Shown here: positions 3,929 to 24,609 of the stretch, piece after piece | How positions within the stretch are numbered: position 1 is the first letter of the stretch | How the letters are laid out: each line of letters opens with the position of its first letter | Assembly: GCF_003334255.1 (NCBI RefSeq) | Contig: NZ_QOWU01000057.1 | Source: Escherichia coli | Lineage (GTDB): Bacteria; Pseudomonadota; Gammaproteobacteria; Enterobacterales; Enterobacteriaceae | DNA: 33,649 nucleotides | Strand: one strand, 5' to 3' | Program-made: the position numbers and the translations under genes | Notes under the pieces: generated by a model | The model's database searches: none | What the model was told of the DNA's origin: nothing | What the model saw: only the letters and a program-made list of their open reading frames with translations

Positions 3929-4094
3929 GTCTTTCCTTTATCGTTAGTTTAACGTTTTCGTCATGCCAATTCGCATGACGCAATCGTTGCCGTATAAGCA
4001 AATACAATGAAAAAAAGTTATCTTCAGCCGTCCATATTGTCTCATTTTGGTATACGATAGCGACGGATTTTCCCTCCTTGTTCGGAAATAGATA

Positions 4095-9089: not shown

Positions 9090-9185
9090 GGGCTAAAGCG
9101 TCCTGATAGTAAGGTGACGCAAAGCATACGTGGTGAAGGAGGATCAGGCGAGTTGCCATTTGGACATAAGTGATTTCCTGAGAGG

Positions 9186-9214
9186 CAAGAAGCCAGCGAA
9201 TGGCTGGCTTCTTG
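9186..9214 (-). terminator. Strong hairpin immediately downstream of the tnaB stop; candidate tna operon terminator (no U-tract)
   Basis: Perfect 12-bp stem CAAGAAGCCAGC / GCTGGCTTCTTG with 5-nt loop, 7 nt after the tnaB stop; no T-run on either strand. Confidence 0.45.
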
Positions 9215-10558: not shown

Positions 10559-11974
10559 TTAAACTTCTTTCAGTTTTGCGGTGAAGTGACGCAATACTTT
10601 TGGTTCGTAGGTAAAGGTTAATCCTTTAATATTCGCCGCGTTCTCTTTCACATGTTTAAAGGCTTCAATAATGAAGTCCATATGTGTTTGAGTATATGTT
10701 GCGCGCGGAATGGTTAAACGCAGCAGTTCAGCCGGGCATGGCAGTTGTTTACCGGTTTTCGGATCGCGGCCTAACAGGAAAGAGCCAATTTCTACCGCAC
10801 GGATACCGGCGACTTTATACAGCTCGCACGCCAGCGCCTGTGCCGGGAACTGGTCTGCCGGGATATGCGGCAGCAGTTTACCGGCATCAACGAATGCCGC
10901 GTGACCGCCTGCCTGCTGGCAGACAACGCCAATCTCTTCCAGACCATCGACCAGATACTGTACCTGCGCGATACGATAAGCCAGCCAGTCGAGATTCATG
11001 CCGTCATACAGACCTACCGCCAGACGCTCCATCGCGCCGCCTTCCAGGCCGCCATATGTCGGGAAGCCTTCCTGCACCACGCAAAGGGTTCTGCACTCGG
11101 TGTACACATCAAAGAAGCTGTCGTCTTTCATGCACAGCAGGCCGCCCATCGGCACCATCGCATCTTTCTTGGCGGACATCGCCAGCATATCGGCATATTT
11201 GTAGGTTTCGCGGGTGATCTGCTCGATGGTCCAGTCTTTGTATTCTGCTTCACGCTGCTTGATGAAATAGGCGTTTTCAGCAAAGCGCGCGGAGTCCATT
11301 ACCACCGGAATATCGTATTTCTTCGCGATGCTGTACATCGCTTTTAAGTTTGCCAGTGAAACCGGCTGACCACCTGCAGAGTTACTGGTGATGGTTGCAA
11401 CGATATACGGCACGTTATTCGGACCAACTTCTTCAATACCGCGTTCTAATCCCTCAAGGTCAAAGTTGCCTTTAAAGTCGTAACGCACGCCCGTATCGAA
11501 GGCTTCTTTGATATAGACGTTACGCACGGTACAGCCGTTGATCTGGCTATGGCCCTGCGTGGTATCAAAGAAATAGTTAGAGAACGCCACCATTTTGCTG
11601 CGATCCAGGCCTTTTTCCTGCTCGCGTTTTTTAATCAGTACCGGAATATAGATTTGCTCTGCGCCACGGCCCTGGTGAGTCGGAATGGTGTATTGATAAC
11701 CAAAGATATTTTTCACTGACTCGGCTAACGCATAGTAGCTACGACTGCCGCTGTAAGCTTCGTCGCCGCGCATCATCGCAGCCTGCATGCTCTGCGTCAC
11801 CGCCCCGGTGCCGCTGTCGGTCAGTAAATCGATAAACACATCTTCGCTATCCAGCAGGAACGGGTTCATACCGGATTTAATAATTGCCTCTTCACGATAA
11901 GCGCGAGTGGTACGTTTTACTGGCTCAATAACACGAATGCGGAACGGTTCAGGGAGATGTTTAAAGTTTTCCAT
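10559..11974 (-). CDS. tnaA: TnaA, tryptophanase (tryptophan indole-lyase), PLP-dependent (471 aa)
   Basis: ORF 10559..11989 trimmed to ATG at 11974 ([18 protein letters not shown]…), AAGGAT Shine-Dalgarno upstream; PLP-lysine region [12 protein letters not shown] present. Confidence 0.96.
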
Positions 11975-12194
11975 TACATAATCCTTCATTTATTTTAATT
12001 ACAGTGATCCCTGTGAATATTACATCTGCTATACCGATTAATTCGCCAGATATATATGCAAGCACCATCATTTACTAAAACAAGTAAATAAACGAGAGAT
12101 GACCTTTGCAAAAGGCAAAATTAAGATATAGCAAACAAATAGATCACATTGAATCTAATCGGTTTGGCTCTGGTGATGGCTACAGAAGGGCAAA

Positions 12195-12269
12195 TCAAGG
12201 GCGGTGATCGACAATTTTGTTGTCAATATTGAACCATTTTGAGGTCACACATATATGTAAGATATTCAT
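12195..12269 (-). CDS. tnaC: TnaC (TnaL), 24-residue tryptophanase leader peptide MNILHICVTSKWFNIDNKIVDHRP
   Basis: Reverse complement of 12195..12269 translated by hand gives the 24-aa leader with Trp12 and C-terminal Pro24 followed by TGA; about 220-nt spacer to tnaA. Confidence 0.9.
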   Translation of the reverse strand: MNILHICVTSKWFNIDNKIVDHRP

Positions 12270-12344
12270 AATGCACTTATCCTCGCAAGACACGAGGCTA
12301 CATTATTACACTCAGAGTTTTTGTCTATTCTGAAATTGTTTAAA

Positions 12345-12360
12345 TGTGAATCGAATCACA
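12345..12360. promoter_or_regulatory. cAMP-CRP binding site of the tna promoter (TGTGA-N6-TCACA)
   Basis: Perfect TGTGAatcgaaTCACA palindrome about 80 bp upstream of the tnaC start, consistent with a class I CRP site for catabolite-repressed tna. Confidence 0.65.
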
Positions 12361-12511
12361 ATCGTTCGGGGAGCAATATTAAATGCTTTTTTTAAAGATT
12401 ATAAATTACGTAAGAATTTTAATGTTTAAAAAAAGGGTTGAGGAATAACAGGAGTGGTAACAATGAAGCGAAGCCGCATCTGACAGTCAGAATGCGGCTT
12501 CGTAAGCGCGG

Positions 12512-13876
12512 TTACTTACCAATACAGAAGCTGGAGAAAATCCGCCCCAGCAGGTCGTCTGAAGTAAATTCCCCGGTGATTTCGCTTAAGTTCTGCTGTG
12601 CCAGACGCAACTCTTCCGCCAGCAGTTCACCTGCCCAGGCTCCCAACAGTTGCGCTTTGCCCTGTTGTAGATGTTCCGCTGCCTGTTCCAGCGCCTGTAG
12701 GTGGCGACGACGCGCCAGGAAGCCGCCTTCCATGTTGGTGTCAAAGCCCATGCTCTGTTTGAGATGGTTACGCAGCACGTCCACGCCTTCACCAGTCCTT
12801 GCCGAGAGACGAATTAACGCGTGACCGTTCACTTCACTCATTCCCAGCGTTTCGCCGGTGATATCGGCTTTATTGCGCACCACGGTGATCGGCAGTTTCG
12901 CTGGCAGACGGGCAATAAATTCCGGCCAGATCTCTGCCGGATCCACGGCGTCTGTTGTGGTGCCATCGACCATAAACAGCACGCGGTCGGCCTGTTCAAT
13001 TTCCTGCCACGCGCGCTCGATACCAATACGTTCTACTTCGTCACTGGCTTCACGTAGCCCGGCGGTATCGATGATATGCAGCGGCATTCCGTCAATGTGG
13101 ATATGCTCACGCAGCACGTCACGCGTAGTTCCGGCGATATCGGTTACGATTGCCGCTTCACGCCCCGCCAGCGCGTTTAACAGGCTCGATTTACCGGCGT
13201 TAGGACGTCCGGCAATCACCACTTTCATCCCTTCGCGCAACAAACTACCCTGACGTGCTTCAGCACGCACTGCATCAAGATCGGCAATAACGTCATTGAG
13301 CTGGGCTTCAATTTTTCCGTCGGAGAGGAAATCGATCTCTTCATCGGGGAAATCAATTGCCGCTTCGACGTAAATGCGCAAGTGGGTGAGGGCTTCTACC
13401 AGATGATTAACCCGTGCGGAGAATGCGCCTTGCAGCGAGTTAAGTGCCGAACGGGCCGCCTGTTCCGAACTGGCGTCGATAAGATCGGCAATCGCCTCGG
13501 CCTGGGCTAAGTCAAGTTTATCGTTAAGAAACGCGCGTTCGGAAAACTCACCAGGGCGAGCAATCCGCAGGCCGGGAATGGTCAGAATGCGTTTTAACAG
13601 CAGGTCGAGGATCACCGGACCGCCATGACCTTGCAGTTCCAGCACATCTTCGCCGGTGAACGAGTTCGGGCCAGGGAACCATAGCGCAATCCCCTGATCG
13701 AGCACGCTGCCGTCGGCGTCTTTAAACGGAAGATAATCGGCGTAGCGCGGCTTAGGCAGTTTACCCAGCACGGTTTCGGCAACTTCACGGGCTTTGAAGC
13801 CGGAGATGCGCAGGATGCCAACGCCGCCACGTCCCGGAGGCGTGGCCTGGGCTACGATAGTGTCATTATCGCTCAT
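12512..13876 (-). CDS. mnmE: MnmE (TrmE), tRNA modification GTPase (454 aa)
   Basis: 454-aa ORF, ATG at 13876; G1 motif [12 protein letters not shown]; C-terminal CIGK; K-12 synteny downstream of yidC. Confidence 0.95.
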
Positions 13877-13981: not shown

Positions 13982-15628
13982 TCAGGATTTTTTCTTCTCG
14001 CGGCTATGCAGGCCACGTTTTTCCAGACCACGGTAAATCAGCTGCTGCTGAATAATGGTTACCAGGTTGCTGACGATATAGTACAGCACCAGACCTGACG
14101 GGAACCACAGGAAGAACACGGTGAAGATGACCGGCATAAAGGTCATGATCTTCTGCTGCATCGGGTCGGTCACTGTGGTCGGCGACATCTTCTGAATGAA
14201 GAACATCGTTACGCCCATCAGGATCGGCAGGATGTAGTACGGGTCCTGTGCCGACAGGTCGTGGATCCACAGTGCAAACGGTGCCTGACGCAGTTCAACG
14301 GAACCCATCAGCATGTAGTACAACGCCAGGAAGATTGGCATCTGGATCAGCAGCGGGAAGCAGCCGCCCAGCGGGTTAACCTTCTCAGCTTTGTACAGCG
14401 CCATCATTTCCTGGCTGATACGCTGTTTGTCATCGCCCAGACGCTCACGCATTGCCTGAATCTTCGGCTGCAACATACGCATCTTCGCCATGGAGGTGTA
14501 CTGCGCTTTGGTCAGCGGGTACATGATGCCACGAACGATAAAGGTGATGATGATAATGGAGAAGCCCCAGTTACCCACAAAGCTATGGATCCATTTCAGC
14601 AGTTTGAACAGCGGCTGAGAGATGAACCACAACCAACCGTAATCAACGGTCAGATCCAGGTGCGGAGCAACAGCTGCCATTTTGTCCTGGATTTCCGGGC
14701 CAACCCACAGGGTGCTGTTCATCGCGCCAGTCTGACCAGGCTGAACCAGTACCGGCTGAGATTTATAGCCGATAGCGGCGATGCCGTTACCCAGATTAGC
14801 GGTATAGAAGTTGTTGGTACCGTCGTTATGCGGGATCCACGCCGTCGCGAAATACTGTTGCAGCATCGCCACCCAACCACCTTTCGAAGAGATGTTCAGG
14901 TTTTCGTTATCGGCAATGGTATCGAACTTGTATTTCTCATACTTCTCGTCAGGCGTGGAGTACGCCGCGCCACGGAAGGTGTGCAGTGCGAAGTTGCTGC
15001 TTCCGGTATCGAGATGCGGTGGCAGAGTGATGGATTGCTTCAACTGACCAAACGAGGAGATTTCCAGCGGTTTCTCGCCAGCGTTCTGCACGTTGTAGTT
15101 GACGTTGACAGCGTAATCACCACGTTTCAGGACAAACGTTTTGGTAAACGTGTTGCCTGCCGCGTCGGTATACGTCATCGGCACCTGCAGTTCGTTTTGA
15201 CCTTCAGCCAGCACATAAGCGTCTTTTTCAACGTTATACAGCGGACGCGGGCCGTTAGCCGGGTTATCCGGGCCATCACGACCGGTCAGACCGCTCTGTG
15301 CCTGATAAATAAACTGCGGTGAAGTTTCCAACAGCTGGAACGGCTGGGTAGAGTTCAGCTCTTTCGGGTAAGCAGGCAGCAGAGCTTGCTCAACATCACC
15401 ACCACGGGTGTTGATGGTCAGATCAAGCACGTCGGTCTTAACCGAGATCAGTTTCCCCTGGCCACTGGCCGGTACGCCCTGGTCGGCGGCGCTACCCGCT
15501 GCGGTGGTCGTTGTCTGCGTGGTCTGTTGGGCCTGAGGTTGCGGGTTTTTATCCTGCTCCCAGGCTTGCCAGATCATGAAAGACACGAACAGCAAAGCGA
15601 TGACTAAAAGATTGCGTTGCGAATCCAT
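13982..15628 (-). CDS. yidC: YidC, membrane protein insertase (Oxa1/Alb3 family) (548 aa)
   Basis: 548-aa ORF, ATG at 15628; N-terminal TM, large periplasmic domain, C-terminal multi-TM core ending in basic tail. Confidence 0.96.
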
Positions 15629-23118: not shown

Positions 23119-23134
23119 AAGAAGCTATAAGAAA

Positions 23135-23166
23135 AGGGCGGAGATCATCTCCGCCCTTTTTATTTC
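23135..23166 (+). terminator. Rho-independent terminator downstream of gyrB
   Basis: Hairpin AGGGCGGAG-atcat-CTCCGCCCT followed by TTTTTATTT; an upstream A-run makes it potentially bidirectional. Confidence 0.65.
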
Positions 23167-23238
23167 TGCAATCCGCAATTATCATCCCGCAAATCTATAC
23201 TTTTTGGGTCAACACGTAACGCTTTACAGGTGATTATC

Positions 23239-23637: not shown

Positions 23638-23751
23638 GCAAAAAGGGAGCACGCAACGCGCGTTGCATCCCCCTTTTCCCTCGGGTGTTGTACTGATTTT
23701 TGAGCGGAATCGCGTTAGCATGGGTCAGGAACCAATCTACCTGGGGAACTC

Positions 23752-24564: not shown

Positions 24565-24571
24565 TCTGTGG

Positions 24572-24602
24572 GCGGGCAAACAGCATAAACGCGTTTGCCC
24601 GC
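24572..24602. terminator. Candidate bidirectional terminator hairpin between convergent yidA and yidX
   Basis: Perfect 10-bp stem GCGGGCAAAC / GTTTGCCCGC with 11-nt loop, located between the yidA stop (24564) and yidX stop (24610); weak U-tract. Confidence 0.45.
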
Positions 24603-24609
24603 TTACTGA

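Follow-up and report, generated by a model that had tools for sequence, protein, structure and literature searches.

What is the near-perfect palindrome that lies between mnmE and tnaC in Escherichia coli, and on which strand does it act? The element was noticed in a stretch of 33,649 nucleotides of E. coli DNA, referred to here as the window, and a preliminary description took it for a candidate terminator stem or protein-binding palindrome that insulates mnmE from the tna promoter. The window is K-12-like. Several E. coli chromosomes match the 321 bases that surround the site with 100% identity, and a 48-mer that includes the hairpin is identical in MG1655, where the hairpin occupies positions 3888202-3888235. 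The spacer between mnmE and tnaC carries no annotation at all in NC_000913.3.

The hairpin and its setting

The palindromic string was quoted exactly at 12471-12500, and the full inverted repeat proves to be 2 bp longer on each side, spanning 12469-12502. Its placement downstream of mnmE is right only as read on the minus strand, on which mnmE is encoded with its stop codon at 12512-12514. In the mnmE orientation the hairpin starts 9 nt past this stop codon; the distance had been given as 12 nt, and even to the end of the shorter repeat it is 11 nt. The tna CRP site, which had been placed about 170 bp away, is 110 bp from the palindrome when measured between their edges and ~133 bp when measured between their centres. 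No gene converges on mnmE at the hairpin, the next gene being tnaC, which has its own CRP-dependent promoter (Table 1).

Table 1. Features and alleles at the mnmE-tnaC junction, in window coordinates.
Feature	Position	Strand	Remarks
yidC	13982-15628	-	
mnmE	12512-13876	-	Coding sequence, 454 aa; its transcript would end at the hairpin
Spacer between mnmE stop codon and stem	12503..12511	-	9 nt; 12503 is polymorphic
Stem-loop of the mnmE 3' UTR	12469..12502	-	Folding; identity in E. albertii; homologues in at least 12 species
5' arm, CGAAGCCGCAU	12502->12492	-	
Bulged U	12491	-	
Upper stem, CUGA/UCAG	12490-12487 with 12483-12480	-	
Loop, CUG	12486-12484	-	
3' arm, AUGCGGCUUCG	12479->12469	-	
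Tail 3' of the stem	12434..12468	-	Degenerate U-tract, then a C-rich stretch
CRP-type site TGTGA-N6-TCACA of the tna promoter, TGTGAATCGAATCACA	12345-12360		Conserved in E. albertii
tnaC	12195-12269	-	
tnaA	10559-11989	-	
K-12 allele			1510 genomes; perfect 11-bp outer stem
G->A allele	12494	+	1905 genomes; C->U in the 5' arm of the sense RNA, giving a U.G wobble
T->C allele	12503	+	1217 genomes; A->G in the sense RNA, giving an extra G-C closing pair with 12468

The perfect 11-nt arms (CGAAGCCGCAT at 12469-12479 and ATGCGGCTTCG at 12492-12502) enclose the palindrome CTGAC-A-GTCAG (12480-12490) and a single unpaired base at 12491. As RNA, the element folds into a stem of 11+4 bp (15 bp) closed by a 3-nt loop; the 34-nt hairpin has a Delta G of -22.8 kcal/mol whichever strand is folded. 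Placed in a 61-nt context, it has a z-score of -5.3 on the minus strand and -5.1 on the plus strand, with none of 200 shuffles equally stable, and it ranks in the top three or four by stability among the 40-nt hairpins on either strand of the 33.6-kb window. Inverted repeats with perfect arms of at least 11 bp and a spacer of no more than 12 nt occur at three loci in the window, compared with a mean of 0.14 in dinucleotide shuffles, and the remaining two loci are gene-end hairpins too. A blastn search (word size 11, E up to 10) of 5426 complete E. coli genomes found the 48-mer in 4652 of them, as a single locus per genome (median 1, maximum 2). No Rfam family matched positions 11900-12700 at E up to 10, and none reached its gathering score in seven orthologous loci.

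A consensus terminator scan, which admits no bulged stems, did not call the site and called two weaker hairpins in the coding end of mnmE instead. On the minus strand, the last mnmE codons contain a terminator-like hairpin (GCTGGGGCGGATTTTCTCCAGC, 12520-12551) with 7 pairs and a T-rich tail (TTCTGTATTG), which terminates a few bases ahead of the mnmE stop codon. Translation probably masks this hairpin, which may be due to chance, as the region contains two such sites against 0.9 expected. Elsewhere in the window, further very stable gene-end hairpins are found at 23123-23170, 23639-23678 and 24567-24607; one of them is symmetric with A/T-tracts on both sides (AAAAGGGCGGAGAT...ATCTCCGCCCTTTT) and looks like a bidirectional intrinsic terminator.

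The mnmE hairpin shares with canonical intrinsic terminators, such as that of E. albertii mnmE, a stable RNA stem-loop that is rich in G+C, formed by the sense strand and located right after the stop codon of the last gene of a transcription unit and in the same orientation. It differs from them in that its 15-bp stem is of unusual length and strength, no A-tract stands upstream of it, and the tract of ~7-9 nt, mostly U, that directly follows the stem of such a terminator is missing in E. coli. The earlier statement that there is no T-tract on either strand is correct in the strict sense, no T run being longer than 2, but the mnmE-sense tail CTTCATTGTT does have T at 6 of 10 positions. In place of an uninterrupted U-tract there is a degenerate one, CUUCAUUGUU (12468->12459), with a T-tail score of 1.47 compared with 3.8-4.8 in most orthologues, and then a pyrimidine-rich, C-rich and G-poor stretch that looks like a rut site, the 35 nt 3' of the stem containing 13 C and 2 G. 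Within this C-rich tail, CTGTTATTCC (12442-12451, minus strand) resembles the TorR 'tor box' reported for the tna promoter region, CTGTTCATAT; a literature search for TorR and the tor box found nothing.

Orthologous hairpins and variation within E. coli

Eighty mnmE loci, one genome per species, were compared over the 140 nt that follow each stop codon. A homologous CCGCAT...ATGCGG hairpin with compensatory base changes stands 3' of mnmE in at least 12 species of Enterobacterales, and the conservation that the preliminary description had named as a check is clearly present. In E. albertii the arms are identical (ACGAAGCCGCAT...ATGCGGCTTCGT) and are followed by TTTTTTGTATG (TTTTTTG). Pairwise alignment of E. 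coli with E. albertii shows the arms invariant amid a diverged 5' spacer, loop, upper stem and tail, with ~15 extra C-rich bases in the E. coli tail. Ten more loci have the core hairpin CCGCAT...(CTGTTA)...ATGCGG 10-36 nt 3' of mnmE (Escherichia sp. ESNIH1, Leclercia, Pseudocitrobacter, Pluralibacter gergoviae, strain RIT691, Brenneria, Erwinia psidii, Acerihabitans, Serratia silvae and an Enterobacterales MAG), several of them with flanking sequence in common. The element is real, non-random and conserved.

A covariance model (R1) built from 12 mnmE 3' hairpins matched on the mnmE strand, ~5-35 nt past the mnmE stop codon, and recovered E. coli, E. albertii and the core-hairpin loci, together with a few weak off-target matches. 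MAFFT, applied to 12 sense-strand sequences without regard to structure, gave an alignment that is partly out of register in the hairpin and has compensatory changes in 6 of the 11 pairs, as for example a G-C pair in Escherichia and Leclercia that is C-G in the AACCCGC group. In a second alignment (A3) the register was corrected by the covariance model; being fitted to the model, this alignment favours the structure, and a few off-target or reverse-strand matches are among its sequences. Double changes were seen in 7 of its 11 pairs, and 92.5% of its cells are paired, compared with at most 47% when the partners are slid. The sole distant exception among the R1 matches is in Mangrovibacter yixingensis (L061 5639-5689, 35.5 bits), ~1.8 kb downstream of mnmE, where a DNA insertion may have separated mnmE from its ancestral terminator.

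The T-tail score is 3.8-4.8 in 8 of the 11 non-E. coli orthologues, and a d'Aubenton-Carafa-type score d is +27 for E. albertii and -25 for E. coli. No other stem of the orthologous set is as strong as that of E. coli (-22.8 kcal/mol). Across genera, the loop or spacer measures between 3 and about 10 nt. At least 18 others of the 80 loci, among them Vibrio and Aeromonas, have their most stable hairpin within 60 nt past mnmE, with T at 6 or more of 10 positions behind it; the transcription unit that mnmE closes therefore commonly has an intrinsic terminator at its end. The orthologous hairpins adjoin mnmE whether or not tna is the neighbour. On these sequence comparisons we read the E. coli hairpin as an orthologue, and a descendant, of the canonical intrinsic terminator that follows mnmE in Enterobacterales, with whose full T-tract representatives it is homologous by sequence, position and covariation.

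Of the 4652 E. coli genomes that have the hairpin, 4632 carry one of three alleles. The commonest, G->A at 12494, alters one arm and breaks the symmetry of the DNA but keeps a G.U pair in the RNA; its stability is -20.8 kcal/mol in the sense strand compared with -16.7 kcal/mol in the antisense strand, where an A.C mismatch results. The T->C allele at 12503 reaches -26.2 kcal/mol with flanks. Across species, G.U pairs number seven in the sense strand and two in the antisense strand. The pattern of alleles and G.U pairs fits an RNA acting in the mnmE direction, and not a symmetric protein-binding DNA site.

The hairpin is missing in ~774 of the 5426 complete E. coli genomes (~14%). In these genomes positions 12363-12510 (148 bp, comprising the hairpin together with AT-rich DNA on the upstream side of the tna CRP site) are swapped for ~2.6 kb of DNA (L003 2365-2501; L005 566-3176) that contains a type III effector gene of the ShET2/EspL2 family, convergent with mnmE. 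The junctions of this replacement lie at the mnmE stop codon and at 12362/12363, beside the CRP site. Between the stop codons of mnmE and the effector gene, the replacement strains have a different, 13-bp hairpin (CTGTTCCGTTCTG...CAGAACGGAACAG), which could equally be the effector gene's own terminator. The segment missing from the effector-insertion strains also includes, at 12386-12404 / 12417-12435, an imperfect inverted repeat that is AT-rich and separates the hairpin from the CRP site of tna, with 19-nt arms that are 89% complementary, a 12-nt spacer and T7/A7 runs on the flanks.

Several other features of these loci deserve mention. In Citrobacter and Pluralibacter (L008, L019, L031), REP-like palindromes (GCCCGGTGGCGCGATGCTTGCCGGGC, GCCGGATAAGGCG...) replace the CCGCAT-type terminator hairpin. 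A Leclercia MAG (L012, about 3960-3975) has a perfect CRP-type site, TGTGATTACAATCACA, ~75 nt past the mnmE terminator, and no tnaC-like coding pattern was found in this locus. In the window, a perfect 12-bp hairpin (CAAGAAGCCAGC/GCTGGCTTCTTG; 9149-9179, minus strand) follows tnaB, and the motif AGGAAATCAC..TGTCCAAATGGCAACTCG (9186-9214, minus strand) lies between that hairpin and mdtL, upstream of mdtL. The same motif stands directly 3' of mnmE in Enterobacter, Citrobacter, Pluralibacter and RIT691 (L010, L016, L019, L022, L031, L008, L072), often within an ATTTCC-N5-GGAAAT hairpin; no tnaC pattern was found in these loci, and in the one Enterobacter cloacae locus checked the gene next after mnmE looks like mdtL. 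This suggests that an insertion placed tnaCAB between the terminator of mnmE and the region upstream of mdtL.

Transcript ends and competing explanations

Mapped transcript ends, the other check that the preliminary description had named, did not come to its aid. The Term-seq tables of Adams et al. list, for three conditions, no 3' end at MG1655 38882xx, and their table of Rho regions has no Rho-termination region at the mnmE end (Adams et al., 2021; PMC7815308); the entries leave a gap from 3885151, in yidC, to 3888521/3888562, at tnaC and the tna leader. mnmE is likewise absent from the TERMITe and SMRT-Cappable-seq supplementary tables, and its expression may be too weak to clear the thresholds of these data sets. 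A literature search found no paper combining mnmE, tnaC and a terminator, the sole paper found on mnmE and tnaC having EF-P as its topic. The entry at MG1655 3885151, inside yidC at roughly window position 15550, is a significant Rho-termination region in supplementary file 2 of the same study (Adams et al., 2021); being internal to yidC and just upstream of mnmE, this region could reduce the transcription that arrives at the mnmE end.

There is a published precedent for U-poor stem-loops at transcript ends. The steady-state 3' ends of Rho-dependent E. coli transcripts were found just past stable stem-loops that have reduced U, no upstream A-tract and a downstream bias of C over G, and that protect from PNPase and RNase II (Dar and Sorek, 2018; PMC6061677). 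The E. coli mnmE hairpin fits this description of a protective 3' stem-loop, with its stable stem, its low U content, its lack of an A-tract and the 13 C to 2 G in the 35 nt downstream. It differs from these stem-loops in that it derives from an intrinsic terminator and in that the tables of Adams et al. (2021) show neither a bicyclomycin-dependent read-through nor a 3' end for it.

We consider that the palindrome is an RNA 3'-end element of the mnmE (yidC-mnmE) transcript, acting on the minus strand, and give this role, taken as a whole, a probability of roughly 0.75. Within this RNA 3'-end role, a mostly intrinsic mode of termination and a mostly Rho-dependent one with subsequent trimming share the probability about evenly.

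The hairpin might instead be an evolutionary relic, an ancestral mnmE terminator that has had no role in E. coli since the loss of its U-tract, with transcripts ending elsewhere or reading through. The degenerate U-tract, the lack of a mapped 3' end in the tables of Adams et al. (2021) and the ~774 of 5426 genomes that manage without the hairpin are all consistent with such a relic, yet E. coli and E. albertii have kept the same arms amid diverged neighbouring bases, both common E. coli polymorphisms keep or lengthen the sense-strand pairing, the E. coli stem is, as noted above, the strongest of its orthologous set, and the strains that lost the hairpin show another one after mnmE. We therefore hold a relic to be unlikely. 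A DNA site for a dimeric protein, serving as an operator or insulator for the tna promoter or for mnmE, is a far more doubtful proposition. What recommends it is a near-perfect intergenic palindrome 110 bp from the tna CRP site, with arms of identical sequence in E. coli and E. albertii; across genera, however, the arms vary in sequence while their pairing is kept and the loop or spacer ranges from 3 to about 10 nt, rather than the half-site being conserved over the pairing at a fixed spacing, as in an operator. In addition, the most frequent E. coli allele (1905 genomes) alters one arm, breaking the DNA symmetry and leaving a G.U pair in the sense RNA, and the orthologues lie 3' of mnmE regardless of the tna neighbour. 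Of the two possibilities raised in the preliminary description, the protein-binding palindrome thus has little left in its favour, and the terminator stem is upheld by the homologous T-tract hairpins after mnmE in many Enterobacterales, by the covarying pairs and by the pairing-preserving E. coli polymorphisms.

It is scarcely credible that the hairpin belongs to, or is a remnant of, a repeated or mobile element, whether a REP/BIME-like repeat or an attachment or junction site of the ShET2/EspL2 insertion. Like REP/BIME elements, it is an intergenic, G+C-rich, imperfect palindrome past a gene end and could lend stability to the mRNA upstream of it, and GATGCGGC in its 3' arm resembles part of the REP consensus; moreover, the insertion in ~14% of strains replaces exactly 12363-12510. 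In contrast to a repeat family, the hairpin is present in a single copy per genome across 4652 genomes, has no Rfam match and is unlike the true REP-like sequences at the equivalent position in Citrobacter and Pluralibacter. It is also shared by E. albertii and by distant genera that lack the insertion, and is therefore older than the insertion. Membership in the REP/BIME family was ruled out by the lack of dispersed copies (median 1, maximum 2 per genome), and an island attachment site by the junctions at the mnmE stop codon and 12362/12363, which lie away from the palindrome.

The end of the mnmE transcript and the tna promoter

What the hairpin does in E. coli itself we infer from its match to the stem-loops described by Dar and Sorek (2018; PMC6061677), which points to a leaky intrinsic terminator with Rho as a backup and a hairpin-protected 3' end. 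The hairpin would still end the mnmE transcript as a weakened intrinsic terminator, and polymerases that read through it would probably be released by Rho loaded on the C-rich tract. The 3' exonucleases would then trim the RNA back to the hairpin, by which the 3' end of the mRNA would be both fixed and protected. The net effect would be to keep yidC-mnmE transcription out of the CRP-dependent tna promoter and the tnaC leader; insulation of the tna promoter against transcription from upstream, as the preliminary description proposed, is to be expected of any such element.

A more far-reaching possibility, which we consider rather improbable, is that the loss of the U-tract and the gain of the C-rich tract in the E. 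coli lineage turned an intrinsic terminator into a Rho-dependent or leaky end, through which upstream transcription reaches the tna control region. If this were true, transcription from yidC-mnmE would arrive at the tna promoter and tnaC leader under the control of Rho, and there would be CRP-independent basal transcription of tna, or a coupling of tna to upstream expression. The locus would then also represent a natural switch of terminator type between sister species, E. albertii having retained the canonical form.

As an RNA 3'-end element, the hairpin would delimit the E. coli mnmE transcription unit at its 3' end and would account for the shielding of the tna promoter from upstream transcription. 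Beyond annotation its importance is small, and the element is an ordinary one. The mildly interesting point is an evolutionary one, in that the stem is conserved across Enterobacterales and the U-tract is present in E. albertii but not in E. coli. The two species thus offer a compact natural pair in which to ask what a U-tract contributes in the presence of a very strong stem, and whether or not Rho takes over when it is lost.
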